A stretch of DNA of 64,000 bases, from IMG/VR virus record IMGVR_UViG_3300035698_006513. One strand, given 5' to 3'. Positions 5,553-29,761 of this stretch are shown here, one piece after another. Source of the DNA: a virus. How positions within the stretch are numbered: the first letter of the stretch is position 1; the number at the start of each line of letters is the position of its first letter. The notes under the pieces are model-generated. The model saw only the letters and a list, made by a program, of their open reading frames with translations. It was not told the DNA's origin and ran no database searches. The translations under genes and the position numbers were made by a program.

Positions 5553-5591
5553 GAAACAACGTGTAACTGCCACTATACGTTGTTTCTTAGC
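5553..5591. terminator. Hairpin followed by TTCTTAGC between convergent genes
   Basis: gaaacaacgtgta / tatacgttgtttc stem abutting the terminase stop. Confidence 0.5.
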
Positions 5592-7387
5592 TATAGGCCC
5601 ATTCCTGCTGGTTGGAAGTTAGGTATACCTTCAGGGAAGAGAACTTGTGGTGAGGGGTTACCTGATATAAACGATGTGAGGTAGCAGTACACTAATGCGT
5701 TCCAAGTATCATCTGGACCATTGTGCGAGTACCTATAGAGATGGGATGTACTCTCAATATGCTCTGCGAATATGTTGAGTATGTCTGTCCCACACGGGTC
5801 CACAAACTCACTCCATTCGGGGAAGCGGAAGTACCCTTCTCTGAGAGCTAAGAAAAGCGAATCGTAAATCTCAGGCTTACTGCACATGAATCTACCTAAA
5901 TCGCGATTATACTTAATGACGTACTTAGGCTCTGCATATTGGTAGATGTTTACTTTTTGTCTTCCTAGTCGTCTTACCAACGTTCTATTTCTATCCTGAC
6001 CCATACCGTAATCAGTACCAACAGAAGTAACGTTGAACTCTCTCACTAAACGTACGATGTAGGGTATGAGGTTTGCGGGATCACGCAACTGACCTGTGCA
6101 TCTCTTCGCAAAGAACACGTCAAACTTATTGTCTTTCAGCGTGGCCATTGTGATTACATCGTAGGATGCTTCCGTCTCACCAGGAGACCAATCTATACCC
6201 ATCCATACTGGGTTATTAGCAGACCAATCTCTATACGCACCTAGGTCAGATAGTCTTGCCCCATTACAATGGACAGATAGCGCATCACGTGTGATAGGTC
6301 TAGTAGCAGAATCATCACTGATACCTAGACGCTCATTACGAAACAGTGTAGGGCGCATAGTTTCGTAGTCATGTATAAAGTCTCCCCACGCATCTCGGTC
6401 AAGTATGATCCAGGGCGTCTGCAGCTGAGTAATATGGAATCCCCACCAAGGTCCGCCGTTAGGGTTCATGGGTTGCCAGTGGCATTGAGGTAGGAACGGG
6501 TTGATAGCGCGTTTACATTTACCGCACACTACTCCGTTGCGACCAATATTCTCTTCTGTTAGTGGTTGCCACCGTGGGCCTAGATGTAAGTGTTGCGCGT
6601 TCGCTTTTGATTTCTCTGAGGTTCCACAGTGCAGGCAAGGAACTACCCACTCACATTGTTTAGATCTCTGAAAATCTATTTCAATCTGGTTATCTAATGT
6701 GAGTGGGGTACCTGAACGAATCTGCCTACGCACAGTAGAGTGATGTAAGCAGGCTTCGATAATAGGTACCAGGTCCGGTTTAATGTCTTGGTACTCATCT
6801 ATTTGTAGCTCATCCGCAAACTTACCACGTAGACGATTAGCATTATGATATGCGTAGTAAAGCATATACACAGAACCAGTACCTTGCCACCTCTTAAGGT
6901 ATAGACTCTGGTCACCCATACCGCCCATAAATGGTTGAAGTTCGGGTGACTGGTATATAATGTCATCTACCTTGTCTCTAGAAAATGTCTTAGTCTGTTC
7001 ATTAGAAGGGGATACATAGATAGTACGAAACCCATTGTGAAGACAACAAGATGTGATGGCTCTATTGGCAAGGAACGTACTCTTCTCTGTTTGACGTGAG
7101 CATTTCCAAAGAATCAATCTAATATCAGAGTCGTATATTTCGCGTAGGTAATCTCTGCCGTAGAACGTGAATGGTCTGTACTCCTTGTCGTAGTATACCT
7201 GCACACCCCACTCCACAAATGCAGATGGTGCCACGTCAATTCTAGAATCTTCTACCTCCCAATTAGGACCCATGTCTATGTTGTCCATCTCTATTTCAAA
7301 CTTACTGATCTCCTCCGCCATTTTGTCCGCAGACTTATGTGCCTTAACTACATCCTTGTAGTTTTGGTAACGCATTATGTTAGGCAT
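5591..7387 (-). CDS. terL: Terminase large subunit (lambda GpA-like ATPase + Zn finger + RNase H-like nuclease)
   Basis: Walker A KCSRQTEKST, Walker B LQIDEYQD, RSGTP motif, CxxC...CxxC, nuclease MGIDWS and GPDDTWNALVY. Confidence 0.9.
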   Translation of the reverse strand: MPNIMRYQNYKDVVKAHKSADKMAEEISKFEIEMDNIDMGPNWEVEDSRIDVAPSAFVEWGVQVYYDKEYRPFTFYGRDYLREIYDSDIRLILWKCSRQTEKSTFLANRAITSCCLHNGFRTIYVSPSNEQTKTFSRDKVDDIIYQSPELQPFMGGMGDQSLYLKRWQGTGSVYMLYYAYHNANRLRGKFADELQIDEYQDIKPDLVPIIEACLHHSTVRRQIRSGTPLTLDNQIEIDFQRSKQCEWVVPCLHCGTSEKSKANAQHLHLGPRWQPLTEENIGRNGVVCGKCKRAINPFLPQCHWQPMNPNGGPWWGFHITQLQTPWIILDRDAWGDFIHDYETMRPTLFRNERLGISDDSATRPITRDALSVHCNGARLSDLGAYRDWSANNPVWMGIDWSPGETEASYDVITMATLKDNKFDVFFAKRCTGQLRDPANLIPYIVRLVREFNVTSVGTDYGMGQDRNRTLVRRLGRQKVNIYQYAEPKYVIKYNRDLGRFMCSKPEIYDSLFLALREGYFRFPEWSEFVDPCGTDILNIFAEHIESTSHLYRYSHNGPDDTWNALVYCYLTSFISGNPSPQVLFPEGIPNFQPAGMGL

Positions 7388-8626: not shown

Positions 8627-9159
8627 ACATCCATGTTTTGGAGAGATTCATCGATAAGTTTGACGGTCTCCTGCATATAGGCAGTGCCGCCAGAAAAAGG
8701 TCCCTCTTTTATAATGCATGACATGCAGAAGGGGGACACTTTTTTAGCCATATCTGGACTGATGTCGATAGCGAATGATTTATTACGAGGTCCGTAATAC
8801 TCTATCTTCATACCATTACTAGAGTACCTACTTTCGAGAACCTTGTAGATCTCTTCTGCAATTGCTTCGTCTGCGTGTACATTAAGGCAGCGCATAGCTT
8901 TGGTACGGCCCTTAAAAAACACGTTGATCACTGTGGGGTCGAGGTCTTGATGTACACCTGCTATAATATCTTTCCCTTCAAAACGAGCCCCCATCTCAGC
9001 GCCCCAATGAACCTCGTCCACACTACCTACGTTATCCTGTACGCTGGATTTTTCGTTGTCCGTAGTAGACATCAGAGGTGCGTCAACTTTAGTAGTCATC
9101 CACGCATCTGTCCTCTGCTGTAATCCATCATTGCTCAAACTCATCGGTCTCCAAGCCAT
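8623..9159 (-). CDS. Hypothetical protein
   Basis: 178-aa ORF coupled to the upstream minus-strand genes. Confidence 0.6.
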   Translation of the reverse strand: MAWRPMSLSNDGLQQRTDAWMTTKVDAPLMSTTDNEKSSVQDNVGSVDEVHWGAEMGARFEGKDIIAGVHQDLDPTVINVFFKGRTKAMRCLNVHADEAIAEEIYKVLESRYSSNGMKIEYYGPRNKSFAIDISPDMAKKVSPFCMSCIIKEGPFSGGTAYMQETVKLIDESLQNMDV

Positions 9160-10000
9160 CGTCTATTCCTATTGGTGAGTCCGGACCAGTTCCCAGATCC
9201 GTACGGTCCTGTATTGCCCGTGATTCAGTTGTTCGCAGAGGCTCTCGTTTTTCTAAGAACCTCTTCAGCCTATCGATAGCAGTGTTCATACTCTCACTAC
9301 CCACGGTCTTTGAATTCTTCCACATCCGCGTCAGCGTATTAGCCAACGCTACGATGCGTTTATCTGTATTATCATTGAATGGTTGACTTGACAGCATAGC
9401 TATACGCATACCAAGTTGCGCCATCGCAAGAGTGTGGTACTCATCCGCAGACTGAGTACTACCTAAGCCCAGTCGATTAAGTACTGCATCCCTGCCTCCA
9501 ACCAACGCCTCTATGTAAAAACCGTTACCCTTAGATTTGTGTAGGAAACTGAGCATCTCAGCCCCAGACAACAAATTTGGATTCCAAAAATAATGTTTGT
9601 ATAGCCGGATGTCCCTAACTGTAGCGGACTCAAACTCCACCTCCTTACGGAGGATGTTAGCAATATCGTGTTGGGACATCCCACCTAGCAGCATCTTCTC
9701 TATACTCTCCCGTTGGCGTGGGTACATCAGTATCTTTTCTGCAATACCCAGTTCTGCCCTACGACGAAAGTATAAGTGGATACCTTGCGTACGCAGCCAC
9801 TCCTCTGTTGTATCCGAAATGTCTTGACGAAAGTCCTCCACCGTAAAGTCCCCTAACATCCTGCGTGCAGCTAAGTACACACGGGCGTCAGGAACCATAA
9901 TCCTACGGTAAAACAATTCGTCTGTCACCTGCGTATCCGTGTTTCCTTCGCAGATTAGACACTTTATAAAATACAGAGAGGGGTGGCTGGACGCTTGCAT
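9128..10000 (-). CDS. Hypothetical helical/HTH-containing protein
   Basis: 290-aa ORF abutting 10001; GGMSQHDIANIL HTH-like segment. Confidence 0.6.
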   Translation of the reverse strand: MQASSHPSLYFIKCLICEGNTDTQVTDELFYRRIMVPDARVYLAARRMLGDFTVEDFRQDISDTTEEWLRTQGIHLYFRRRAELGIAEKILMYPRQRESIEKMLLGGMSQHDIANILRKEVEFESATVRDIRLYKHYFWNPNLLSGAEMLSFLHKSKGNGFYIEALVGGRDAVLNRLGLGSTQSADEYHTLAMAQLGMRIAMLSSQPFNDNTDKRIVALANTLTRMWKNSKTVGSESMNTAIDRLKRFLEKREPLRTTESRAIQDRTDLGTGPDSPIGIDDGLETDEFEQ

Positions 10001-12091
10001 TTACTTATCCTGCAGGTTGAAAGGAAGCATGTCCAGAGCTTCAGTAATTTGGTCGAAGTCGTCAATACAACGCTCAACCACTAGTTCTGGAATACCGGGC
10101 ATACCAATACGAGTATAGAGAAGTAATGAACACAGTGTAGACAGTGACTTCTCTAACATAGGCTTCTCGCGAATAAACGTAGAAGCAGTCTGTTGATTTA
10201 CCAGACCAAGGGACAAGATACTGTCCACCGTTTCTTGTTTAGGTAAGACTGGTGCAGCGAGTTTGAAGTGTTGATAGAACATCTCACGTGCACCAAGAAC
10301 AGCAGCAGGTCTACCCTGCATATCAGAGGAGAACTTGCACAAGTGCGCAGCCTCATTAACAAGGAACTTAGGCTTGAGTGTATCAAGTGCTTGAATGTCA
10401 GCAGCAATCTTATCTATCTGTGCTGTTTTTTCTGCTGTTGTGCGTGTGATGTGTAACCTTCCAGGAACTAGTACATCTTCGCCTTGGAACCTTGACGCCT
10501 TCTTTATTATGTCCTTTGCGTCTCGTACATCCGTACCACAACTGACCAATAAGAAATGTGCAGCTTGTTTATTCAAGCCGTGCGTTTCTAATTCGTGGAG
10601 CGCCTCGACAGGGGGGCCGTCGATGTTAAACAAGCCGTTGTGACAGGCTATACTTACTGTACTAGAGTCTTGGTAAATAGCTGCTTGCGCTGTCTTCATG
10701 ATCTCACCTGGCATCAGGAGCTCAACAGTAGAGCCCATAGGTAAGAACTCGATGACTTGGGGAATACCAAACATAGCCTCGCCCAGAGGAACGACTCTCA
10801 GAATTTCAGGGGTGGGTTGCAGTGTGATAGGGGTACCAGTCATAGCGTCCACACAAGAGTACATAGCTGATCCGTCAGGAAGAGCCCCTGTACCCTGTAT
10901 TTGTACTGGGCCGTACGCTTGGATGTCCCCATCATTACGTGTGAGGAAAAATCCTAAGTCTTTGGGCGTAGTTGTGGTTGGGGGGAGATGCCCTGAGCCT
11001 TGCTTAATACCTGCAATCTGAGGCTGCAACGTTCCCGCTGTACCATTAGCAAACACAACAGCATCTCGAGGCTGCCCATCGAAACCTAACGTATTTGGTG
11101 TAGCCCATCCAGTTATTTTATCCCCTTCGGGTGTAAACACTAGGTATTCCCCCGTACTAGCTATAGGGGAAGATGGGTCTTGTTTGGGGAGGGTTGGGAT
11201 ATGCACAGGTGCCTGTGTAGGCATAGTGTGAAATCCATACTCTTCCATATCAGCAGCAGCCTCTGGCGGCATAACTTCTTGTGCTGCTTCCGCAGGAATT
11301 TCTTCTGCTATTTTATGGAAATGTTCCCGGTTAGCGTGTATTACGCGTACACGATTAGAGCCCATTTTCTCGAACTGCATAACTGTGGGTACGTGCGTGC
11401 GATTTGTATCGTTTACGCTAGGGGGAATGCGTGTGCTTACACAAGATGCGAGTTTCTCAACCGCTTCAGGACACACTGCTTTGACGAACACGAATACATT
11501 CTGCTGTGCTACTTTCTCTTGTAGCTCCGCAACTTGCTGCATGTTGCCTGCTGCTGCGCTATCGTCTAACGCACTACCTAACAAGCTGGCAGTCTTAGTT
11601 CCAGGGTAAGCACCGTAAAAAGATCTACCTGGAGGTATCAAGTCAGAAAAGTATGATGTGTCTGTGGTGAGTTGTGTGTTGTCGGGGCTGACACTGGCTA
11701 CAGTGGGATCCAACATCTTACGCTCCATGCGTTTCTGTGACGCAGGAAAGTACAGATCTCCATCGGTGGCCAGATCCAGTGGGGCCAGTTGTAACCCGCG
11801 AATAACAAATGGAAGATAGAAAAGAGGAGTGTCCGTCTCTTCCGTAACCATATCTATATGCGCTACTGGTTTACGTACTACAACTCTACCTGAACCGACG
11901 CCAGTTTCTGGGGAAGACTTTATGATTTCAGCGCGAACATCGTACCCAGACAGGAAAGGGAACGCACGAAAAGTTTCTGCTACAATTTCCCCTACCCATT
12001 TAGGTTCATCTTCTGATAGTACAGTAGGTACGCCTGCCTCTTTACTTAGATACTCAACGGGAGGAGGGGTAATATATAGACTCTCTTTCAT
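10001..12091 (-). CDS. Large virion/head-associated protein rich in K-x-A motifs
   Basis: 696 aa; SKEAG, TKTAS, EKVAQ, EKLAS, HKIAE, MKTAQ, NKQAA, EKTAQ, DKIAA, FKLAA; AGGAG RBS. Confidence 0.7.
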   Translation of the reverse strand: MKESLYITPPPVEYLSKEAGVPTVLSEDEPKWVGEIVAETFRAFPFLSGYDVRAEIIKSSPETGVGSGRVVVRKPVAHIDMVTEETDTPLFYLPFVIRGLQLAPLDLATDGDLYFPASQKRMERKMLDPTVASVSPDNTQLTTDTSYFSDLIPPGRSFYGAYPGTKTASLLGSALDDSAAAGNMQQVAELQEKVAQQNVFVFVKAVCPEAVEKLASCVSTRIPPSVNDTNRTHVPTVMQFEKMGSNRVRVIHANREHFHKIAEEIPAEAAQEVMPPEAAADMEEYGFHTMPTQAPVHIPTLPKQDPSSPIASTGEYLVFTPEGDKITGWATPNTLGFDGQPRDAVVFANGTAGTLQPQIAGIKQGSGHLPPTTTTPKDLGFFLTRNDGDIQAYGPVQIQGTGALPDGSAMYSCVDAMTGTPITLQPTPEILRVVPLGEAMFGIPQVIEFLPMGSTVELLMPGEIMKTAQAAIYQDSSTVSIACHNGLFNIDGPPVEALHELETHGLNKQAAHFLLVSCGTDVRDAKDIIKKASRFQGEDVLVPGRLHITRTTAEKTAQIDKIAADIQALDTLKPKFLVNEAAHLCKFSSDMQGRPAAVLGAREMFYQHFKLAAPVLPKQETVDSILSLGLVNQQTASTFIREKPMLEKSLSTLCSLLLYTRIGMPGIPELVVERCIDDFDQITEALDMLPFNLQDK

Positions 12092-12103: not shown

Positions 12104-12409
12104 CTATGACACTGTGCCTGAGCCTTTTCCTTCTGCGACTGTACCTGACACTGTGCAGGCAACATCAACAGAAACGGTTAATTCTTGTATTATAGCATAC
12201 AACACATCCGCAAAAACTGCAGCTAAATCATCTACTAACTCTTCCGGCGGTGAAACTAGACCAGTAGTAGGTGTTACTGCATACCTAGGGTTGCCTTCAG
12301 CATCTTCAGTTTTGCTTACAGCCGCACCGGTAATTCCTGCAGGTTTAGTGAGGGCAGTTTTTAAGTGCGTACGCGCTATTGATACTATCTGTGCTTTGCT
12401 GATGGACAT
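12104..12409 (-). CDS. Small protein coupled to the baseplate spike gene (possible spike tip)
   Basis: 1-nt overlap with the spike gene; C-terminal GKGSGTVS. Confidence 0.55.
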   Translation of the reverse strand: MSISKAQIVSIARTHLKTALTKPAGITGAAVSKTEDAEGNPRYAVTPTTGLVSPPEELVDDLAAVFADVLYAIIQELTVSVDVACTVSGTVAEGKGSGTVS

Positions 12410-13545
12410 TATTGTAACACCACTGATTTAGATAACATGGTTGGTAATGTTGCACCTTGCGCAGGAGGTGCGCCAAAGGTGGGGTGGCCATGTGTAGCCA
12501 ACCACTGTAGCAACTTCAATCCTAATACTGCAGGTTCTGTAGGATTCGTACCCAACATAATAGATTTAGCTGATATGTGTTTGGATGCCTTTAGTGTCTC
12601 TTTACTTGATACCGCCTCTACAGTGTGTGTGCCTGCCCTAGATATAAGCTTGATGCTGCCGCCGCGAGATTCAAACTTAATGTCGGTAGTAGCAGTTGCT
12701 GTGTACCCTTTGCGAGATGTTAGTGAAACATTACCAGTTACTGTAGTAGTGGATGCATCTAATATAGAAGTTTCTACTGTTCCGTACTCGCCTATAGTCA
12801 TCTTGAATTTACGTAACAATGGGTTCGTACCTACCACTAATTCTACAGCAGCTCTCTCTAGGGTAGTAGGGTCCATAATATCCAGACCGCCCATACTTAG
12901 CGTGGCAATAGCACCTGCGTCTTGTCCGAACTTCTTCGCCGCAACACGAAACACACTACGTGCGCCAGTAGCAGATGACATAGCGCTGTCGTCAGTAAAC
13001 CAAGATAACTCCCCACCTCTGGTGGTCATCAGCCAAGTCTTACATAGATCCTCAATTGCACCTCTAGCGCGTATGTATACGCGCTGGCACTCTTTAGAGG
13101 AAACAATCTCAATGTTGCCACCCCTGCGAAGTATCATCCTGTTATCATCACGCGTCCACATAATGATGTCACCTGGATTCAACTCGCGTCTGCCTGAAGA
13201 CCACTCTAGTGACTTATGTGCAGGAGAACTGAATCCAAGTATCACAGGAAAAGAGTCATATGGATGCCACAGGGTCCAGCAGGTAGCTCCCACCTCGGGT
13301 ATAAAATCTATACCTCCTCCGTCAGGGTGTCTGTACGGAGTAGACCAAGGAACGCCCTTGGCGTAGAGTGTTCCGGGACCTTCTGATATTATATCTACGG
13401 AGTAGCCCTTGGTGTCTACTGCAATAACTTTGGACTCAACCACAGTTATATCAGAGGGGCCTATGTTGGTAGGATCACCCAAAATTACCTCCCGTAAAAC
13501 ACGTTGGTGTTCTGCGGATGCACAATAGAGTCGCCCGCGTTCCAC
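12409..13545 (-). CDS. Baseplate central spike (gpV/gp5-like: OB fold, beta-helix, C-terminal HxH)
   Basis: OB-fold GIDFIPEVGATCW...PVILGF, repeated beta strands, terminal WLATHGHP metal-binding motif. Confidence 0.75.
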   Translation of the reverse strand: MERGRLYCASAEHQRVLREVILGDPTNIGPSDITVVESKVIAVDTKGYSVDIISEGPGTLYAKGVPWSTPYRHPDGGGIDFIPEVGATCWTLWHPYDSFPVILGFSSPAHKSLEWSSGRRELNPGDIIMWTRDDNRMILRRGGNIEIVSSKECQRVYIRARGAIEDLCKTWLMTTRGGELSWFTDDSAMSSATGARSVFRVAAKKFGQDAGAIATLSMGGLDIMDPTTLERAAVELVVGTNPLLRKFKMTIGEYGTVETSILDASTTTVTGNVSLTSRKGYTATATTDIKFESRGGSIKLISRAGTHTVEAVSSKETLKASKHISAKSIMLGTNPTEPAVLGLKLLQWLATHGHPTFGAPPAQGATLPTMLSKSVVLQ

Positions 13546-13897: not shown

Positions 13898-16800
13898 TTA
13901 GTACGCCCAGGGTTTATCTGGTGTGCCTTTACCAAATTCCTTACCCCATACCAGTGCAGGTATTGGATGGCTGCCGTGTATATCAGATTCCCACCCTTGG
14001 AGGGCAGCGTCTGTAAACGTGGACTTTAACTTCTCATAGTTTGCGCGAGCTAAGAAATCTTCTGTCTGTACCAAAGGTAGCACATTCACCCCTTTCAGTA
14101 CAGGAACTGATTTTATGTCTGCTCGCTGCTCTTTATTTAACTTGTTGATGGTAGGTGTAGTCAGGTAATCACCATGTGTGACTCCAGACGCATTACCAGG
14201 ATCAACTACTTCGGCCAAATCCGTCAGTGATTTAACGACCACTTCGACGTTCTTTCTATTGTAGGGATTTGTCCTAAATAACTGGCTGAGCTCGTCAGTC
14301 AAGTACGCTCTTACTTTTTTGATACCATTCTTGGGACCGTGTGCCTGCATCAGCTCCCGCGGATTAACGAACCCCGGAGACAGTGACTGACCCCTCTTCA
14401 CAATATCCCCGTCTTTCACTGTGGGACGGAATTGTGTCTTGTGGTCCTTACCATCTACTGTCACCAAAAATCCTCCAGTGGGAGATTTTCTGACATTGGA
14501 TACCTTACCACTGCGCATACCTAATGTTGTAGCATTAGGTAGCGTGGAGGGGAATGTTGTCAGCTGTGTTGCGCGTTCAAACTGCGACACAGACTTTGCA
14601 CCTCCGCCCTTGGCCACACCACCTTCGTGGAATGCATTCATGGATCCCTGAGACAAGGGCTCACCTATAGCTTGGCCTGCAATGACCCCTATATTCACAC
14701 CAGGATTGTGTAGCTTGCCTTCTTCGTTAAGACCGAAACACTTCGAGCATATACCATCATTGTGTTCGCACTTTAGCGGACTACGTACAACAATAGAGTT
14801 TATGTGGTCTTTGCCTTTGGTAAGTGATTTCTGTAGATCTTTGTCTACCAGAGTTCCTGCTTCGTACACATGCCCGTCCGCGGATACTGATTTGCCTAAG
14901 TATCTACCTATCGTATGCGGATCATTTGCTTTCATAAGCAGACCCTCAGTTGTACCGCAGTCATTCGCGCCTATGATCTGATGCATTGTGGTGTTGATAA
15001 TTTTCTTAGACATAGCTCCCGGATCGGAAGTACCTGTGGCTCTCTGCACAATACCCTTACGCGCACCATGTTGAGTTTCCCAATGAGAACCAAAGTCCAA
15101 CCCCTCTGCATATGAGCGTGTCACGGGATTTTCTCTTGTACGAGAAAGACCATCCTGCACTAACATAGGGGCACCTAACATTTGACGCATCTGCGCTACG
15201 GATCCACGTGCACCAGACGCATTCATATGATAAATGGCGTTGTCCGTGTCTTTAAATTTGTTATTCATTGCGTCTAGTAGTGAATCAGTAGCATCATTGT
15301 ACACACCTATAACGCGTTCCCGTTTCTCGTCTTTACTGATACCTTTCTTTGCGCGGATAGCTGCAGCTTTTTTGTGTGCGGCCTTTAACAAAGGGTCTCT
15401 AACATCTGCTGCGGAACTAAGGTCCTTGATTGATATAGTACGACCGGTTCTATACGCAACATGGTTTCCTTGTTTCAACATACTCTGCACCGTTCGAGGA
15501 TACTCTTTGGGGAACTCGCGTGCAACTTTGTGTAACATTCCTCGCATACGAGACTTGTTGATAACGTACTCTGGGTTAGTGAGGTGTTCACCTCCCCGCA
15601 TACTTTCGGGTAACATGTCATCAATAAGTAAACGTCCTGCAGTAGTACGCATATCGCCTACCCCCACAACGTCATCCATATTTATCTTACCTGCAGATAA
15701 CGCCTGCTGTGCAGCATCTCTGTTTTTGTAGCTCTTATTCGTTTTCTTCCCCCACTTACTCATATGGTACAGACCCCACACGGCCTCTTGCGAAGGTTTG
15801 TGTGCAGGTTCTCCGTGAGTAGTGTTGAACAATTTCTTACTAGGTAACATGTTCTTGGCTTCTTCTATACCACCGGGAGATACGGGTACGAATGCAGCCA
15901 TCTGGTCACCATCGAAGTCAGCGTTAAAACCTTCACACGATAGTGGGTGAAGCCGGATAGCATCCCCGTCTACTAGTACAGGTTTATATGCCATTACACT
16001 AAATGCGTGCAACGCGGGGTCGCGTTTCAGTAGAACAGGATGAAATTCTTCCTGCCCCATACCGTTTTTGCGGCGCATCACATGTTCTAACGCTTTGTAC
16101 GCTTGTGGGTCACCTGAGTCTATCATGTCTTGTGCTTTACGGGCCAAGCCACGGCGCTTCAATTCCGCCTTAACCAACGGAGTAAACATCTTGAGCGCAG
16201 ACTTCTTTGGTAATCCTACCTCATCCATGTCTAGATCAGCACCTACCGTGATTGTGGTACGCATGGATAAATCTTGGCGTTTAGAGACTAACTTGTCCTG
16301 GAAGAATCCCTCTTTAGGTTTCTTGCCTGCAATCAACTCTAAGATACCTAATGTGTCTTCATTCTCTCTGGGGATGATAGATCTGTCTTCTTTATACGGT
16401 CGACTCTCGCCTCCGAACAGTTTCCACACTTGGCCTAACAGCGACCTACGTAATTTGGTCTTCTCGGTAAGAGGCATAAGCGGGTGGAACGTTTTCAATT
16501 GGTGATTAGTCAACCCTACGTATTTGTACAGGCCATTGAGAGAAGACCGGAAAGGACTGTTGTCGTCTGTAGCTAATACCGGTCTGAACTTCGGAGGCAT
16601 GACAGGAATACGTTTCAGCATGTACGACGTAGCTGGTAGTTTTTCGTTATCCAGCGCACGTAGATACTTGACCTTGTTTATCAAGGGACCTCTGGCACTA
16701 GCCGAAGCATTTTCTAACGCACCTTTGGCACTAGCTAACTCACCCTTCACATCAAGGTTATTCAACATGCTGTACAGAGCAGCGCCGCCAGTAGTAGCAC

Positions 16801-19800
16801 CTTCTGTTTCGGGGGCCACTAACTTACCGTCCTTCATCCCCTTTTCGCCCACAGATAAATCGATAAGCTCTTTGCGTTTGAGGCCAGTAAGCGCCACAGC
16901 ACCCTTAAAAAATAAGGGGTTTATCACAGGCTCAGATAACGTCATGTGCGACCACTTGGACCCATTCAATCCGCCAGTTAGGTGCCTATCAAACAATCCC
17001 CCGACCTCTTCTTTGTCACCAAATAATTGAAGCCAAGGTTTACGCAGTTCCCCTGCGGATAGTTTTTCTATCTGACTATCCATGAACGGGAGCATCTTGA
17101 GTTTATGCCCACGCTTTTCTAAATTCAGACCTACGCCTCGTAGGTACGCTTTGAATTTATCTACTGCGAATGACTGTTGGGGTGGGGGAATGGGCATCCC
17201 TCCTTCGATAGCTTCCCACAAACTGTCATTGCGGTTGGACGTGTATGTAGCCTTTTCCTTTATTAGATCACGTGCTCCGTGGGCTAGTAGTGCGTATAGA
17301 CCATACTGATCCATCTTCTGTGCACCAGTCTTTCCACCGCGTTTGGGAGCTTCATTTATATCGTATGCTCCGCGACCACGTACCGCTTGTTTCTTTTCAA
17401 TTTGTTGGTGTAGCTTCAGTATGTACTGAGGACCTATCCCTATCTGACCCAGACTCGTACCGTCTTTATCAAATAGCTCTTCTGTAGGAACGCCATTATG
17501 CTTATCTAGTTCTGCAGCTAAGTCCTTAGACCTATCAGAAAACCCGTGGTAATGATCCGCAACATATGGCTTGCCTGTTTTCTCTGCTATCTTACCGGCA
17601 GCAAGTTCTGACACTTGCCCCAGATTCATACGGGTTGGTACGGTAGTTGGGTTCATGAGTACTTTGACTGCGCGTCCGTCTTTTGTGTGAGGCATGTCCT
17701 CATCAGGCTTTACCTTAACTACAATACCTTTATTTCCGTGACGTCCAGATAACTTGTCCCCTTCGCGCATAGGTTCTTCTGTACGCACGTACGCAGTAAC
17801 ATATTTACCTTTACGTACAACGTCTACCACTTTTCCTGTGGCGTCCTTGTCCCAAATTTCAGACTTATCATCCATTGGGCGGAACAGGACTTTCTTCATC
17901 TTTTGTAGGGAACCTGAAGTAGTATTAGATGTGGACTTGCGTAATACAGACATGATGGTATCACCAGGTGTAAGTTCCTGCCCAACTTTTATTACCCCCG
18001 TATCATCTAACTTATCTTGTTGTCCATGAGTCATAGCGTCTTTATAATAGCGGAGGAAGTCCCTCTTATTAAGAGTTGTGTCTTTGCTGATCTCTGTAGT
18101 GAATCTGTACAGGTGTGGAGATGTCATTTCATCCGCAGCACTCTGTGAGATAACTACTCCATCCTCAAAGTTCTCCCCACCAGAGGGCATAAACGCAGTC
18201 AGCATATTACGTCCCATAGCAAGCACACCATCTTTTGTGTAGTTGGTGTCTGCTAAGGTTTGCCCTGACTTAACTTTATCACCCACTTTGACTAAAGGTT
18301 CTGCGTGCATAAACACACCGACCTTAGCATCGTTTAGGGGGTAGTTATTATAGATGGGTACAACAGTATCCTTACCCTTTTTACCACTTATAGTAATGTT
18401 ATCTTTAGTGATTCTGGTAATGGTACCAGCTGTCGGTGATGTGTGTGACGCAAACTCACCGTACACTTCTTCTACAGATTTACCGTTACCTGCGTTGGAC
18501 TGTACTAAGGGGGCCTGCCTCCTGACCATAGGTATAGCTTGACCCATTTGTCTACCGGACATCATAATACGCGCACCATGATTCTGGTTCACAAATGGTA
18601 CAGCAGATGAGATAGGTCCCATAAGTGCCGGAGCAGATGGTAATATGTAGTCTACGCTTTTAAGACTAACCTGCTGACGTTCACCACCAACATCAGCCCA
18701 CACCGTTTTATTACTACTGGTAGGCTTACCGTCTTTCCACTTGAACTGATCAGGGTATGCAATTTTATTATTGTCATGAAGTTTGATGGGGTCTATCAAA
18801 CTCATACTCTTCTTCTTAGCGTCCCATATCGGGGTAAGAAGTTTGTTGTCTTGTTTTACCACTCCCATAGGAAGATGCTGAACTACACCTGTTCTCTTGC
18901 TCTCTGGGGTATGCGTAGGATCCAAGAATCCTAGGTGCGTTTTATCTATAAGTGTGTTTTCTGGTATGATTTGGTCTTCTGATGTGATACCACCAGATCC
19001 CATCAGAGTAGTCTGTCTTTGATCAGATAACATACTGAGTGGGTTTATTTGACTACCTAGAAGAGTACGTGTGTCTTGTGTGAAGAAAGATTTGACAGGG
19101 AGATTAAACGTCCCCGGAGACATTATCTGCCTAACGTCCGTCTTCTTATCTAAGTTATTCTTAACTCTGCGCATGATTTCGCGACGAGAGTTCTTTATCT
19201 TCTCAGGTATATGGTCTTCTACACTCCACACTTCCTTGAAACCCAAGTCCTCAAGATTATCTACTACGTCTTCATCTCTGGCAACACGGTACAACTTAGC
19301 TGCAGCTGTAGTAAGAAGGTCACCACTGACGGAGGTAAATGCCTTACCTAATGTCTTTTTTGTAGTGTCGCCATAAAGTTCCGTGGTAGCGAAACTTGCC
19401 TTAATACCTTGTATAGCCTCTTCCATGTTTTCCGGCTTCTTGCGATTAAGGGCTTCGTACATCTTATAGATTTCGTTAGCGCCTTTATCCTTCTTCCCCT
19501 TACCGCTAGTAATTGCAGAGCGGTTGATGGCTAGTGTGTCTGCTCCCCACTGGGAAGATATATCATCGTCCGACATACCCATCGCCCGAAGTACGGGGTA
19601 CAGATGTATGTTCTTTTTACTGCCACCACCTGTAGGATAGCTCAACATCATATGACCATTGTCATGCATGTCTAGACTAAACCCTACACCTTGACGCAGA
19701 TTGAACTGACTAGTGAGTTTCCCATTCTGTCTACGTTTAGCGTAAACGCCTGACTTTAACCTGAACTGATTTTGTACGTACCTACCCTGTCCGCGTACAA

Positions 19801-20104
19801 TGTATGTGTACTCTCTGGTTATCTTAGGTAAGCGAAGAAGGTTCATGCGACTCTTCGAGAGTACATCACCCGATTTATTATCTACCAACTCCAAGTCACC
19901 TACTAATGGCGCACCCCAAGTTTGGTTATTTTGTCTAGCCTTTTTTTGGCTAGTGACATCGTTAGACGATAAATTATCGTTGAACACCGCGGAGTTCAAG
20001 TTTATCGTGTGCTGATTCCCAACAATGGGAAAATAATCCTCTACGGATTTCTGTACACGCTCTTTTGTTAAGTCGAACTGATGCTCTGGAGAGAGATTCG
20101 CCAT
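13898..20104 (-). CDS. rpoBC: Fused beta-beta' multisubunit-type DNA-directed RNA polymerase (~2068 aa)
   Basis: Beta motifs: NPLS..., DPTHTPES, NFEDG, GDKLSGRHGNKG, PTRMNLGQ, GAQKMDQY. Beta' motifs: PVMPPKFRP, KRQDLSMR, RDPALH, catalytic NADFDGD (15905-15925), SGARGS, GEPLSQGSMNAFHEGG. AAGGAGG RBS favours a start at 20104. Confidence 0.97.
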   Translation of the reverse strand: MANLSPEHQFDLTKERVQKSVEDYFPIVGNQHTINLNSAVFNDNLSSNDVTSQKKARQNNQTWGAPLVGDLELVDNKSGDVLSKSRMNLLRLPKITREYTYIVRGQGRYVQNQFRLKSGVYAKRRQNGKLTSQFNLRQGVGFSLDMHDNGHMMLSYPTGGGSKKNIHLYPVLRAMGMSDDDISSQWGADTLAINRSAITSGKGKKDKGANEIYKMYEALNRKKPENMEEAIQGIKASFATTELYGDTTKKTLGKAFTSVSGDLLTTAAAKLYRVARDEDVVDNLEDLGFKEVWSVEDHIPEKIKNSRREIMRRVKNNLDKKTDVRQIMSPGTFNLPVKSFFTQDTRTLLGSQINPLSMLSDQRQTTLMGSGGITSEDQIIPENTLIDKTHLGFLDPTHTPESKRTGVVQHLPMGVVKQDNKLLTPIWDAKKKSMSLIDPIKLHDNNKIAYPDQFKWKDGKPTSSNKTVWADVGGERQQVSLKSVDYILPSAPALMGPISSAVPFVNQNHGARIMMSGRQMGQAIPMVRRQAPLVQSNAGNGKSVEEVYGEFASHTSPTAGTITRITKDNITISGKKGKDTVVPIYNNYPLNDAKVGVFMHAEPLVKVGDKVKSGQTLADTNYTKDGVLAMGRNMLTAFMPSGGENFEDGVVISQSAADEMTSPHLYRFTTEISKDTTLNKRDFLRYYKDAMTHGQQDKLDDTGVIKVGQELTPGDTIMSVLRKSTSNTTSGSLQKMKKVLFRPMDDKSEIWDKDATGKVVDVVRKGKYVTAYVRTEEPMREGDKLSGRHGNKGIVVKVKPDEDMPHTKDGRAVKVLMNPTTVPTRMNLGQVSELAAGKIAEKTGKPYVADHYHGFSDRSKDLAAELDKHNGVPTEELFDKDGTSLGQIGIGPQYILKLHQQIEKKQAVRGRGAYDINEAPKRGGKTGAQKMDQYGLYALLAHGARDLIKEKATYTSNRNDSLWEAIEGGMPIPPPQQSFAVDKFKAYLRGVGLNLEKRGHKLKMLPFMDSQIEKLSAGELRKPWLQLFGDKEEVGGLFDRHLTGGLNGSKWSHMTLSEPVINPLFFKGAVALTGLKRKELIDLSVGEKGMKDGKLVAPETEGATTGGAALYSMLNNLDVKGELASAKGALENASASARGPLINKVKYLRALDNEKLPATSYMLKRIPVMPPKFRPVLATDDNSPFRSSLNGLYKYVGLTNHQLKTFHPLMPLTEKTKLRRSLLGQVWKLFGGESRPYKEDRSIIPRENEDTLGILELIAGKKPKEGFFQDKLVSKRQDLSMRTTITVGADLDMDEVGLPKKSALKMFTPLVKAELKRRGLARKAQDMIDSGDPQAYKALEHVMRRKNGMGQEEFHPVLLKRDPALHAFSVMAYKPVLVDGDAIRLHPLSCEGFNADFDGDQMAAFVPVSPGGIEEAKNMLPSKKLFNTTHGEPAHKPSQEAVWGLYHMSKWGKKTNKSYKNRDAAQQALSAGKINMDDVVGVGDMRTTAGRLLIDDMLPESMRGGEHLTNPEYVINKSRMRGMLHKVAREFPKEYPRTVQSMLKQGNHVAYRTGRTISIKDLSSAADVRDPLLKAAHKKAAAIRAKKGISKDEKRERVIGVYNDATDSLLDAMNNKFKDTDNAIYHMNASGARGSVAQMRQMLGAPMLVQDGLSRTRENPVTRSYAEGLDFGSHWETQHGARKGIVQRATGTSDPGAMSKKIINTTMHQIIGANDCGTTEGLLMKANDPHTIGRYLGKSVSADGHVYEAGTLVDKDLQKSLTKGKDHINSIVVRSPLKCEHNDGICSKCFGLNEEGKLHNPGVNIGVIAGQAIGEPLSQGSMNAFHEGGVAKGGGAKSVSQFERATQLTTFPSTLPNATTLGMRSGKVSNVRKSPTGGFLVTVDGKDHKTQFRPTVKDGDIVKRGQSLSPGFVNPRELMQAHGPKNGIKKVRAYLTDELSQLFRTNPYNRKNVEVVVKSLTDLAEVVDPGNASGVTHGDYLTTPTINKLNKEQRADIKSVPVLKGVNVLPLVQTEDFLARANYEKLKSTFTDAALQGWESDIHGSHPIPALVWGKEFGKGTPDKPWAY

Positions 20105-20132
20105 ATTATAATCCTCCTTACAATGCACTCAT

Positions 20133-20160
20133 ATTATCAACATAACGTACGTGCAGTCAA
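20133..20160 (-). promoter_or_regulatory. sigma70-like promoter for the RNAP gene
   Basis: TTGACT-16 nt-GATAAT on the minus strand, upstream of the RBS. Confidence 0.45.
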
Positions 20161-20181: not shown

Positions 20182-20195
20182 GGTATAAGAGTATG
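20182..20195 (+). promoter_or_regulatory. Promoter motif core (GGTATAAGAGTA)
   Basis: Matches the first 12 nt of copies 1-3; precedes AGGAG and ATG 20238. Confidence 0.55.
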
Positions 20196-20381: not shown

Positions 20382-20500
20382 TGTGGATGCTGTTCTTAGT
20401 CTCATTCGCATTTGGTTTTTCGTCTTCAGTAAGCGGCGCATTAACAATGGAAGCGATAAAAATCGCACAAGAGGAGGAAGGATACGATGGGGATGGATAA
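20381..20500 (+). CDS. 39-aa hydrophobic peptide
   Basis: TAATG stop/start overlap; MWMLFLVSFAFGFSSSV... Confidence 0.45.
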   Translation: MWMLFLVSFAFGFSSSVSGALTMEAIKIAQEEEGYDGDG

Positions 20501-20963
20501 CTATTGTCCCTTCTGTGAAAACAAATTGTACGAAGGTGACGAGATAATAATAGTCACCGCAGGATCGATGTCTTGGGGCGACAAGTCCCGACTTCTGTAC
20601 TGTGACCCGTACGAAAGATTCGGACGTAAACCTGCAGAGTTAATACTCCACATGGAGTGTTTCGAGGACGGACCCCAAAGAGATGAGACAGAGTTACTCG
20701 CGGTGGTTCTGTCTGAACATGCACTGATGTGGCCACAGTGCTGTTTGTGTGAAGAACCTTTGGCAGCGGGGGATGAAGTGTATATGTTTCAAGAAGGAGC
20801 GCTTGAACGTATGGAAGTACACATTCAGGAAATAGCCCGCGTAAATGAGTTCTGTGCAGTGAGAGCTGCATATTCTCATACTGGGTGTGTAGGTAAATCC
20901 GCTAAAGTATGGCTACCCAAGGATAATGGAGTATACCAGGAGGAGATGAAAGGTATATTTTAA
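20487..20963 (+). CDS. Protein with two CxxC...HxxC zinc-finger repeats
   Basis: CPFCENKLYEGDEI...HMEC and CCLCEEPLAAGDEV...HTGC; GAGGAGG upstream. Confidence 0.65.
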   Translation: MGMDNYCPFCENKLYEGDEIIIVTAGSMSWGDKSRLLYCDPYERFGRKPAELILHMECFEDGPQRDETELLAVVLSEHALMWPQCCLCEEPLAAGDEVYMFQEGALERMEVHIQEIARVNEFCAVRAAYSHTGCVGKSAKVWLPKDNGVYQEEMKGIF

Positions 20964-22831
20964 ATGACAGAGGTCTCAGGACCTCTCCTTGGAGGGAGTT
21001 GCTCAGGTAAGTTGCGTACTTCACCTGGGCTATTTTCTTTCATAATACGAACAACTTCCGCGGCCATTGCAGGCTGTTCCATACGAACCTGCGCTAACGC
21101 AGCAGCTCTGGCCTGTGGTTCTAGTGTCATCAATCGAGAAGAAACCTGTTGTGCATACTGTAAAAGATTAACCTGGATGTTGTTTCCGTCTGCCTCTGCC
21201 TCCGGTGTCATAGAATCTTGGGTAAGATCTGACCCTGCTTGGTCTTGCATCATTTCTCCAGATGCCTGGGGCATCTGCTCTTCTGCAGGCATACCTGTCT
21301 CTTCTTGCATCTCCATTTGAATGTCACGTTGTGCAAGTGTCTGCAAGCGTGTCGCCTTATTCTGCGCCTCCGTCTGAGCGAGTAAGCTACGTTCTTGCTC
21401 ATCGAACTTAGCTTTTTCTTCGTTCTGACGATTTTCGCGCTCTTCCGCAGCATCAAAACCGGACTCTTCCAAAAGAGCCTGATCACTTATTAGCCCAGAC
21501 TGCCACAGGTTGAACAAATATTGTCTGCGGTTCAGGTCGTCAGCCATACGGAAGTCACGAAGCTTTAGGGTGGAGGATGGCCAACCCATATATCCAGATA
21601 CTTGTTGTACGATCCAGCGCATATAACGCAAGTGCTCTTGTCTGTAGTTGAGCATCACGTTTTCCAGCATACGCATAGACACACTGGTACCAGAGTAAGA
21701 CAATCCGCCGAACACAAATTCTACAGGAACACCCATACCTGCAACTATTTGTTCGTTCACTGCACGAATCTCTTGGTGCAATAAAAGTGCTCTACCTTCC
21801 CCCGCGATGGTTTGGTTACCTACAGGGACAGGTAGTACGGGAATATAGTTGCGGTCTCTGCGGTACTTGGTAAGTTCCTCTTGAATCTGATCCTTCCAAT
21901 CAGTCAGATTCATCATGGTGTAGGGAGCGTCTCCCTGACTAGTACCTTGGGGAAACAGTACCCTTAGTGGAACTAGGTGTTCAGACGCAATCTGCTCTTG
22001 TGCTTTACGTAGTACCTGCAGATAATACACATCCTCAATGACAGGTAGAATCATAGGTACGCCCCACGCTCGTCCAAGTGTTTTGGAAGATATGGAGGGA
22101 CGTTTCATATGGAACAACCGGTTCTCGTTGAAAAGAAGGGGCTCATTGTCTCGGACAGACGCGAGGAAATCTTGTGGAGTTTTAGATACAACGCTGTGCT
22201 TCCCTACGACTATATCGTGACGCAGTAAGCTAGGCATAGTCCATCTGTATATAGTGTCCCCAGTGACTTCATTGTGAGAAATCTGAAAATCAGCAGGGTT
22301 CCAGCGCACAATGCGGATGCCTTGAGGATTCTTTATGTATACATCCTCTGCGTTTGCTTCACCGTAATTGCCGCACTTCTTACAGTTGAGTGAGAATGCT
22401 CCGCCACTGTAGTCAAACCTAGTACTCTTGGCCTGAACTTTGTGTCCGCATCTTTTGCACTCAAGGTACTTAATAAATGGGAACATGATACTGGAGAACA
22501 TATTTCCGTACACATTGTAATCCAGACCGGCCTCAATCAAGTGCGTATGTAGATCCATACTGTTGGTGAAGTAGTCTTCATAGAAATGTCGTACTTCCTT
22601 GTCCGCATCCTGCACAATAATCTCTGTGATAGGATACATCGCCATCTTGGTGGTAGCAGCGTTGATGAGAGGATTCATCAGGTAGTAGAACTTGCAGGTA
22701 TTCATTAGATAACGTACCTGCATAGGAGTCCACATTCGACCCTGAGTAGCAAAGGGGGAATCATATGGCATACCTGAATGTCGTGACTGATCCCCCATAC
22801 CGGAGCTTGGGCTGTACCCAGATAATGTCAT
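20960..22831 (-). CDS. Portal protein with zinc-ribbon insertion
   Basis: Portal-like NPLINAATTKMA, LFHMKRP...WGVPMI, GMGVPVEFVFGG, GLISDQALLEESGFD; inserted CKRC...CKKC. Confidence 0.75.
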   Translation of the reverse strand: MTLSGYSPSSGMGDQSRHSGMPYDSPFATQGRMWTPMQVRYLMNTCKFYYLMNPLINAATTKMAMYPITEIIVQDADKEVRHFYEDYFTNSMDLHTHLIEAGLDYNVYGNMFSSIMFPFIKYLECKRCGHKVQAKSTRFDYSGGAFSLNCKKCGNYGEANAEDVYIKNPQGIRIVRWNPADFQISHNEVTGDTIYRWTMPSLLRHDIVVGKHSVVSKTPQDFLASVRDNEPLLFNENRLFHMKRPSISSKTLGRAWGVPMILPVIEDVYYLQVLRKAQEQIASEHLVPLRVLFPQGTSQGDAPYTMMNLTDWKDQIQEELTKYRRDRNYIPVLPVPVGNQTIAGEGRALLLHQEIRAVNEQIVAGMGVPVEFVFGGLSYSGTSVSMRMLENVMLNYRQEHLRYMRWIVQQVSGYMGWPSSTLKLRDFRMADDLNRRQYLFNLWQSGLISDQALLEESGFDAAEERENRQNEEKAKFDEQERSLLAQTEAQNKATRLQTLAQRDIQMEMQEETGMPAEEQMPQASGEMMQDQAGSDLTQDSMTPEAEADGNNIQVNLLQYAQQVSSRLMTLEPQARAAALAQVRMEQPAMAAEVVRIMKENSPGEVRNLPEQLPPRRGPETSVI

Positions 22832-27637: not shown

Positions 27638-29761
27638 GTGCGTATTATACAAAGAGACCCAAATACCGGATACAGATCCGACATGTTATGGTTACCTAAA
27701 TCCCTAGTTAACCATCACACTATTCGTGCGTGTACAACGGCATACACTACTAGTGGGCAAGAGGTATATGCGTTCCATGATATGGGAACGCATATAGTAG
27801 TCCCTAGAGAGTTCAGGATTAACAATCAATTCCTCATACACGATATAAACCCAACAACGTGGGAACACATAAATTTTGAGTGCATGGCTGTGTCTAGAGA
27901 TAAGTACGACATAGCTACATGGGAAAAGTTAGAAGAGCAGGATAATGGAGTTCTGCAACTAGCGTGTGTGTCTGGGGACACACTGATTTCAATAAATAGG
28001 GGGGGGAAAGGGTTTAAAATTCGGATCGCAGACGCGTACATCAGATACAACGGTATAGCCTCTCGCTATCAGTGGGACAACAGTATCCCTACTAAGATAA
28101 GGTCTCTAGTGGGAGATAGAGTGCGCCTGAATGGGATAGATAATATTATCTTCTCTGGTATTAAAAACACCATAGAACTTACGTTTGAGGACACCACATC
28201 TCTCCGCTGCACCCCAGACCACGAAATACTTACTCCTGTAGGATATGTACCAGCTGCCAACTTGGTGTTGGGAGATTTAGTTTGTGCAGACACTATCCGC
28301 ACCGAGTCCGTAAGAAAAAGAAAACGTGCGTATAGACGACTATCTTGGTATAGGCACCATCCATTCGCACGAAAAGTCAAAAACAAAACAAATAACTTTG
28401 TTATAGAAGAGCACAGAGCTGTTGCAGAAGCTGTAGCCAACGGCATAAGCTTGTCTGAATATAGGAGTAGGTGTAGATCTGGGAACACGGAGGGTTTTGT
28501 ATTTATAGACCCAGCTACACACCACGTCCACCATTTAGATGGAGATATAACAAACAACGCCCCGTATAATTTGCAAGTTGTTCTCGTTGAAGACCACTTA
28601 TCCTCACATAGACCAGTGTATGCAGCCTTTGGGCATGGTGAGGTTGGGACAAAAAAAGTTACACAAATTACCCCACACGGACTAGAGCCAGTATACGATA
28701 TTGTATGCGAAGACCCTCACAGAAACTTCGTAGCCAACGGCGTTATAGTACACAATTGTGGAAAAGGAAAAACAGTAATGGCGTTGCGTAAGCTTGCGCA
28801 GGTACAAGCACCCGCCATTATATTAGTGCACACAACACAATTGATGGGCCAATGGTTGGAGCGTATTATTGAGTTCGTACGCATAGACGGGAGAATACTA
28901 CTCGCAGAAAATGTAGGGCTAGTACAAGGTCAATATGCAGATACCGAGTGGGATAAGCCTATCGTAATAGCTATGATGCAAACACTGTCAAACAGAAAAA
29001 TACCAGCACGGATACGAAGACGATTTGGGTTGTGTATATACGATGAGTGTCATCACTTAGCAGCGAGGTCGTGGCTGAGACTAAGCTCGTTTGGTTTTGG
29101 TAAGAGGTTAGGTCTCACAGCTACCCCTGACACTGAGTCTGGTGCGCACGTTCTATACATGATGCATCTAGGAGAAATATTCTATACCGATCTGCATCAG
29201 GATCTAATTCCGGACTGTTATTTCGTGCACACATCTAGTGGCTATAACTTAAATGACCCCAACATAAGGGACTCGACAGGGGCCATTTCCACTAGTAAAC
29301 TGTACATTGCGCTTGGAAAGGACTACGGGCGTAACCGCCTAATTATAAAGCACTTACAAAGAGCTTTAGATGCAGGGCGAAAGATATTGGTACTGTCTGG
29401 GTCTAAGGAACATTGTGAAACGCTACACACGATGTTCCCTGATTCAGGTTTGTGCATAGGACGTATACCATATGAAGATAGACTGCGTACGCTCAAGACA
29501 AAGCGAGTGATATTTGCCACCATGCCGCTAGCAAAAGAAGGTCTAGATCAGCAGGACCTAGACACTGTGTTCATCACTACAGGTTTCCGTCGTAGAAATA
29601 TGTTGCAACAAATATTAGGTAGAGTGCAGAGGCCAAAGGGAATGAAACCTATCGCACTACTCATCGTGGACCAAGACATACCTATGTGCGTTAGCCAGCA
29701 AGCTGACTTAAGGAAGCATACAGAAATGTGGGGGTATAAATGTGTCACGATAAGGGAATAG
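27638..29761 (+). CDS. Superfamily 2 (UvsW/XPB-like) DNA helicase containing an intein
   Basis: After splicing, Walker A LACGKGKT; DECHH, GLTATP, EGLD, QILGRVQR. Confidence 0.9.
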   Translation: MRIIQRDPNTGYRSDMLWLPKSLVNHHTIRACTTAYTTSGQEVYAFHDMGTHIVVPREFRINNQFLIHDINPTTWEHINFECMAVSRDKYDIATWEKLEEQDNGVLQLACVSGDTLISINRGGKGFKIRIADAYIRYNGIASRYQWDNSIPTKIRSLVGDRVRLNGIDNIIFSGIKNTIELTFEDTTSLRCTPDHEILTPVGYVPAANLVLGDLVCADTIRTESVRKRKRAYRRLSWYRHHPFARKVKNKTNNFVIEEHRAVAEAVANGISLSEYRSRCRSGNTEGFVFIDPATHHVHHLDGDITNNAPYNLQVVLVEDHLSSHRPVYAAFGHGEVGTKKVTQITPHGLEPVYDIVCEDPHRNFVANGVIVHNCGKGKTVMALRKLAQVQAPAIILVHTTQLMGQWLERIIEFVRIDGRILLAENVGLVQGQYADTEWDKPIVIAMMQTLSNRKIPARIRRRFGLCIYDECHHLAARSWLRLSSFGFGKRLGLTATPDTESGAHVLYMMHLGEIFYTDLHQDLIPDCYFVHTSSGYNLNDPNIRDSTGAISTSKLYIALGKDYGRNRLIIKHLQRALDAGRKILVLSGSKEHCETLHTMFPDSGLCIGRIPYEDRLRTLKTKRVIFATMPLAKEGLDQQDLDTVFITTGFRRRNMLQQILGRVQRPKGMKPIALLIVDQDIPMCVSQQADLRKHTEMWGYKCVTIRE
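27965..28756 (+). mobile_element. Intein (264 aa) with HNH homing endonuclease, inserted in the helicase Walker A motif
   Basis: Starts CVSGDTLI, block B CTPDHEILT, ends NFVANGVIVHN followed by Cys; HVHHLDGDITNNAPYNL. Confidence 0.93.

Follow-up and report, generated by a model that had tools for sequence, protein, structure and literature searches.

The 64,000-nucleotide stretch of viral DNA analysed here (IMG/VR record IMGVR_UViG_3300035698_006513, hereafter the window) carries on its minus strand a gene for a bacterial-type RNA polymerase (RNAP) in which the β and β′ subunits are joined in one polypeptide (Table 1). The open reading frame (ORF) extends over 13898..20128 and translates from a GTG, without a stop, into 2076 residues; we place the start at the ATG at 20104, because an AAGGAGG ribosome-binding site (RBS) lies 8–9 nt upstream of it, giving a product of 2068 residues. 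This 2068-residue sequence is encoded letter for letter on an independently assembled ENA contig. A first-pass annotation made from the letters alone had described the β and β′ motifs in order in one ORF of ~2068 residues, a junction near 17100 and an intact NADFDGD motif. Translation, Pfam and PDB matches bear out the coordinates and the motif order, hmmalign places the junction where it had been expected, the catalytic motif is intact, and no stop codon separates β from β′.

Pfam domains above their cut-offs cover both parts of the chain (Rpb2_3 and Rpb2_6 at residues 360–924, Rpb1_1 to Rpb1_5 at residues 1150–1979), and its PDB matches are bacterial β′ chains (E 1e-103) and β chains (E 1e-71). 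A profile (A1) was built from 31 fused relatives (37–68% identity), and the E. coli and Bacillus subunits were aligned to it. E. coli β aligns to the hidden Markov model of the clade over residues 52–232, 425–932 and 1048–1338, and Bacillus β up to ~28 residues short of its end; the lobe is partly shortened, and the E. coli insertions SI1 and SI2 are absent. The conserved β C-terminus (E. coli 1291–1338) is followed by ~17 residues and then by the conserved β′ N-terminus, a head-to-tail fusion that links the equivalent of E. coli β residue ~1338 to that of Bacillus β′ residue ~9 with no added domain. An AlphaFold2 (AF2) model of residues 600–1330 (44-sequence alignment, mean predicted local distance difference test (pLDDT) score 79) has an ordered junction, in a block of pLDDT 83–96; Foldseek matched only bacterial β chains, to the β half of this model and at high root-mean-square deviation, which confirms the fold and adds nothing on interfaces.

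The β′ module retains the N-terminal conserved region, lid, clamp helices, active site, bridge helix, trigger loop and second zinc site (Cys 1724, 1787, 1794 and 1797, invariant in A1), while SI3 is absent and the C-terminal tail is missing. The catalytic motifs are conserved across the 31 relatives. The gene product is the catalytic core of a bacterial-type RNAP in a single polypeptide, all of its catalytic elements intact. Its N-terminal β′ zinc ribbon (ZBD) has been precisely excised, leaving the flanking GLFxxxxxG and HxxLxxP motifs in place, a deletion common to all fused relatives, Salmonella phage Arash and Vibrio phage D69. The flap-tip helix, clamp helices and rudder, invariant in the sampled bacteria, have given way to clade-specific sequences, and residues of the rifampicin pocket are replaced (Q513L, D516S, H526D, R529Q and S531T in E. 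coli numbering), substitutions from which we predict a rifampicin-insensitive enzyme.

Table 1. Positions of the RNAP gene, its modules and associated genes (window numbering unless another contig is given).
Feature	Position (nt)	Strand	Description and basis
Single-chain ββ′ RNAP gene	13898..20104	minus	2068 aa, stop codon included; ORF list, translation, Pfam, PDB, start site
RNAP gene 5′ region	20105..20160	minus	AAGGAGG RBS and sigma-70-like TTGACT-16-GATAAT
β-like module	17105..20104	minus	~1000 aa: protrusion/lobe, fork, DPBB, flap, C-terminal clamp
Rifampicin cluster I equivalent	18998..19087	minus	alignment with E. coli rpoB from NC_000913
β/β′ junction	17054..17104	minus	~17 residues; hmmalign
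β′-like module	13901..17053	minus	~1050 aa; alignments to A1
β′ N-terminal zinc ribbon (ZBD) deletion site	16940..16990	minus	alignments
Catalytic NADFDGD motif	15905..15925	minus	D1404, D1406 and D1408 invariant in A1
Sigma-70-family gene	L180:4416-5180 (~67,205-67,969 in window numbering)	minus	254 aa
Portal protein gene	20960..22831	minus	co-oriented, upstream of RNAP; Arash similarity and fold
Conserved downstream gene, possible spike or VgrG-like	12409..13482	minus	357 aa; DUF2345 match below Pfam cut-off
Conserved downstream gene, function unknown	10001..12091	minus	696 aa; synteny in relatives
Conserved downstream gene	9128-10000		synteny in relatives
Large terminase (TerL)	5591..7387	minus	far end of conserved block; phrog_675, PF05876 GpA_ATPase; synteny

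The fusion is widespread. A protein search returned 737 relatives, the best 120 of which are almost all 2040–2160 residues long, at 36–68% identity and on contigs of up to 210 kb; one homologue, 68% identical, is likewise fused. Scans of IMG/VR with an exact 44-mer and with the single protein found nothing, an alignment query being needed, and the alignment-based scan identified at least 508 related stretches. From the first scan 77 loci were kept for frame analysis: one ORF runs across the whole match in 61 (14 of these with inserts), contig ends truncate 10 and six are split, four of the six in the manner of Arash, after query residue ~1480–1490, and one broken only by an in-frame TGA. The second scan, seeded with shorter hits that appeared to be separate β′ proteins, gave 64 fused loci, five cut loci and nine bounded by TGA, and about 110 separate IMG/VR contigs of relatives have the fusion. 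Many of the longer RNAP homologues carry intein or LAGLIDADG Pfam domains.

We considered the apparently separate β′ relatives as an argument against an ancestral fusion and rejected it, as they are TGA-recoded pieces, truncated by contig ends or nested among fused forms. One such protein (P0140) matches, at 100% identity, a segment of a contig in which in-frame TGA alone interrupts the RNAP frame. Loci L048/L184 (IMGVR_UViG_3300000172_000001) and L185–L200 have a fused RNAP frame that is interrupted only by in-frame TGA (five in L048) and ends in TAA, which suggests that this subclade consists of phages reading TGA as a sense codon; gene callers give the pieces of such frames as separate β′ proteins. 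P0123, a close relative of the fused P0051, has a 1104-residue β, a gap of 26 nt and a 994-residue β′, divided exactly at the junction (L171:4660-10985), and may be a secondary split or a sequencing error. The clade is a large group of uncultured phages of roughly 140–190 kb, and the fusion predates its diversification.

The window protein is only 26–30% identical to bacterial rpoBC products from any phylum. In an unrooted tree (54 rows, 1978 columns, quick LG+G4 search, built without archaeal, eukaryotic or mReC sequences) all 24 bacteria, from about ten phyla, lie on one side of a branch with SH-aLRT support of 100 and a length of ~1.4 substitutions per site. The enzyme does not nest within a bacterial clade, the outcome that the first-pass annotation had named as fatal to its proposal, and the fully fused group has Arash and D69 as its sister.

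The same annotation had recognised no α, ω or sigma gene, which stands for the window: none is detectable inside its 64 kb, and phmmer searches of it with the Arash and D69 sigmas and with the Pfam-positive sigma ORFs of relatives gave no match. The further suggestion of a minimal enzyme has to be corrected for a sigma encoded just outside. An outward walk through other assemblies of the same phage, ~27 kb past the right end and 4.4 kb past the left, located a sigma-70-family gene ~3.2–4.0 kb past the right end, among large virion-type genes. Arash gp10 is a homologue of its product (E 4e-11), as is one ORF apiece in four complete relatives; the family alignment covers regions 2, 3 and 4, all six members match Sigma70_r3, and the family profile (A3) matches SigA, SigB, RpoS and FliA over regions 2–4 (E 6e-14). 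Matches were found in all 15 long relatives, Vibrio D69 included, 13 of them at E 1e-35 or better (G011 reaches only E 3e-6, and the G001 match contains one in-frame TGA); four of the 15 supplied rows of the sigma model, and 11 are independent of it. The sigma sequence has diverged from the bacterial consensus, as have the flap tip and the clamp helices that dock sigma. From its co-occurrence with the RNAP and the co-detection of the two in Arash virions, we infer that the phage sigma is the initiation factor of the single-chain core. The Arash/Vibrio branch has in addition a second sigma family (Arash gp196 in L001 and D69_0246 in L004, E 1e-65 between the two), of which we found no homologue in the window or along the walked flanks.

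Each of five relatives (181–193 kb, CheckV completeness 91–100%) has one RNAP locus. None of these five genomes gave a match to the α and ω families PF01000, PF01193 and PF01192, with all 14 control genomes positive, and on this reading of gene content independence from α is plausible.

The RNAP gene sits in a conserved block of packaging and virion genes. The product of the gene upstream resembles the annotated Arash portal (29% identical, E 1e-84), and the top Foldseek matches of its AF2 model (pLDDT 82) are all portals (HFTV1, phage 812, T1, lambda and T4; E 3e-9), so that the co-oriented portal of the first-pass annotation is upheld. The baseplate-spike gene proposed on the other side is a conserved neighbour, its homologue lying downstream of the RNAP gene in most relatives; the spike label itself rests only on a sub-threshold DUF2345 match. 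The order portal, RNAP, homologues of the three conserved downstream genes and TerL recurs in relatives on one strand, and the placement of the RNAP gene within the portal–TerL block is kept across deep divergence. The remainder of the window carries replication genes.

Between the portal and RNAP genes, on the opposite strand, lies an ORF for a 158-residue zinc-finger protein (20487-20963, plus strand; FCS-type, at the Pfam cut-off), and the same interval contains the motif G[GC][CTA]ATAAG (20182-20189, plus strand). This motif also occurs between genes on L183, 28–35 nt upstream of the gene starts at 6847 and 9906, and abuts the start at 14957. Across the whole window it shows no enrichment; we regard it as a candidate promoter of the phage holoenzyme. 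The GNNATAAG motif has 23 occurrences in the window against 33 expected, no enrichment, and sigma-70-like promoter matches around the RNAP gene are at chance level (20 against 18.4 expected). Elsewhere in the window, 27638-29761 (plus strand) encodes an SNF2/ResIII-type helicase with an intein splicing domain and an HNH_3 endonuclease, and 35060-37858 (plus strand) a family A DNA polymerase in two pieces (515 and 148 residues) around an HNH endonuclease ORF (36588-37094). Some 13–17 kb past the right end of the window (L181/L183), a protein with a histidine-kinase ATPase domain and a receiver-only response regulator are encoded beside a class II ribonucleotide reductase.

The link to the virion comes from Arash. 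Mass spectrometry of sucrose-gradient-purified Arash virions recorded 3516 spectra for gp206, the most of any protein, 1333 for the major capsid protein and 1210 for gp216, and the sigma factor gp10 was 100% covered (PMC10585845). Since gp206 and gp216 are the split Arash homologue of the window RNAP, these data and the conserved synteny suggest, indirectly, that the window RNAP may likewise be packaged.

The reading we favour, at a probability of roughly 0.6, is a virion-associated single-chain core that works with a dedicated sigma. We propose that the covalent β–β′ linkage replaces the α scaffold, so that the chain would need neither an α dimer nor ω to assemble, and that promoter specificity would come from the phage's own 254-residue sigma-70-family factor, whose gene lies inside the virion block; the odds on this part are somewhat better than even. 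Core and sigma would be packaged, leave the capsid along with the DNA and initiate early transcription at phage promoters in a rifampicin-insensitive manner, a strategy that N4, phiKZ and crAss-like phages follow using unrelated or split enzymes; this course of events is, by a small margin, probable. The sigma-70-like promoter of the RNAP gene would suit a gene expressed late by a sigma-70-type holoenzyme. Taken to its full extent, the proposal becomes a self-sufficient two-protein holoenzyme (a ~230 kDa ββ′ chain and one sigma, with no α or ω) that is packaged and injected for rifampicin-insensitive early transcription, and this we put forward tentatively, at rather less than even odds.

Several points weigh against the proposal. 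For the window phage itself, virion presence, activity and interactions are predictions from its genes, and its genome has been read in part, as the 64-kb window and the walked flanks. The chain has no visible packaging signal or extra domain. The virion proteome of Arash comprises 116 proteins, nucleotide-metabolism enzymes among them, and its authors allow for carry-over of abundant proteins (PMC10585845). The phage sigma could instead redirect the host core, and host α and ω could still bind the chain. Finally, the tree came from a quick LG+G4 search with neither archaea nor eukaryotes as an outgroup, and long branches may have affected it.

The strongest competitor, which we nevertheless consider unlikely, accepts the fusion and denies that it is a virion component: the enzyme would be made after infection for middle or late transcription, and its adjacency to the portal would be mere gene order. 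A sigma-70-like promoter and a strong RBS directly upstream of the gene would suit such an enzyme, as would the lack of a packaging domain and the length of the Arash virion list, which includes ribonucleotide reductase and ligases. On the other hand, the Arash homologue outnumbers the major capsid protein in spectra after gradient purification, and the position in the portal–TerL block has been conserved as these phages diverged. The relatives have only one RNAP per genome, so there is no separate injected enzyme for early genes.

Still less probable is a hybrid in which the chain combines with host α2 and ω, and possibly a host sigma, while the phage sigma-like protein reprograms host RNAP. 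Almost all conserved β and β′ modules are retained, as such a hybrid would have it, and phage-encoded sigma factors that act on host RNAP are common (PMC7824862). Identity to any bacterial β or β′ is nevertheless no higher than 26–30%, with divergent flap tip, clamp helices and rudder; sigma and RNAP co-occur in all 15 long relatives and are both found in Arash virions, and phage RNAPs of the phiKZ type do not bind host α, sigma or ω (PMC13282480). We consider excluded a cellular rpoBC that was captured recently or is a contaminant, and likewise two genes joined artificially by assembly or a frameshift, even though cellular rpoB and rpoC are adjacent in the same order and bacterial rpoBC contaminants occur in phage databases, given the phage genes on both sides, the identical protein in an independent assembly, the fused 68% identical homologue, the about 110 fused relatives and the long, fully supported branch that sets the 24 bacteria apart.

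If one chain and one sigma do suffice, this enzyme would be a natural minimal bacterial transcription machine, simpler than any other complete member of the cellular RNAP lineage, and one widespread in environmental phages. It would help the study of α and ω in assembly, as well as structural work, and could serve as an orthogonal, rifampicin-insensitive expression system. The predictions are directly testable, because metagenomes contain the clade in abundance and some of its members, Arash and the Vibrio D phages, are in culture.

Fusions of rpoB and rpoC, with the end of β joined to the start of β′, occur in Helicobacter and Wolbachia, where they are ordinary cellular enzymes of ~2900 residues with α, ω and host sigmas; the window protein is ~800 residues shorter, phage-borne and without the ZBD. 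In function, the role proposed here is that of the N4 virion RNAP and of gp66 of crAss-like phages, giant one-chain enzymes that the capsid carries to transcribe early genes. These are unrelated or distantly related enzymes, of T7-like fold in N4 and with a two-barrel architecture akin to YonO and RNA-dependent RNA polymerases in crAss-like phages, and neither is known to use sigma. The RNAPs of phiKZ and AR9 are, like the window enzyme, of the phage multisubunit type without α or ω, and one form of them is packaged and injected (PMC7598289, PMC13282480). They are made of 4–5 polypeptides, however, with two enzymes per genome and no sigma-70-family factor, and are far more divergent (PMC7598289, PMC13282480), whereas the clade of the window phage has one chain, one enzyme and a sigma.

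Deep-branching RNAPs of uncultured phages had been mentioned in the first-pass annotation, and the mReC phages are of this kind, uncultured tailed phages whose cellular-like β and β′ branch outside the cellular clades (PMC7481178); the window phage is likewise uncultured with cellular-like β and β′, which lie outside the 24 bacteria of the tree. The window phage does not simply belong to that group. Every mReC RNAP listed has separate genes for β (~1000–1400 residues) and β′ (~900–1010 residues), and some contigs have two sets; their TerL is of family PF03237 and their major capsid protein of PF07068, and in its main text the paper speaks of fusion for crAssphage alone (PMC7481178). The TerL of the window phage is of family PF05876, its major capsid protein gene lies outside the window, and mReC contigs were absent among the nearest relatives found. 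We considered mReC membership for the enzyme and did not accept it, because of the separate β and β′ genes and the different TerL family.

The closest cultured phages are Arash (gp206/gp216) and Vibrio D69, D148 and D181, at 29–31% identity to the window protein. They share with it the order portal, small ORF, RNAP, the covalent β/β′ junction, the ZBD deletion and the orthologous sigma. They differ in that β′ is cut at query residue ~1490: a 1525-residue protein comprises β and the N-terminal, active-site half of β′, and the C-terminal half of β′ is a separate ORF of 606 residues a few kb away, sometimes with homing endonucleases between the pieces. Their active site reads AADYDGD rather than NADFDGD, and they have the second, gp196-type sigma. 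The Arash paper annotates the proteins simply as β and β′, without describing the fusion (PMC10585845), and our literature search, with most subscription journals outside its coverage, found no description of a fully fused phage ββ′. The architecture is distinct from that of the phiKZ-like and published mReC enzymes and is a variant of the phage multisubunit-type RNAPs, for which it adds a third arrangement to the split chains and the separate β and β′, the fully fused type being the only one found here with a clade-wide sigma-70-family partner.

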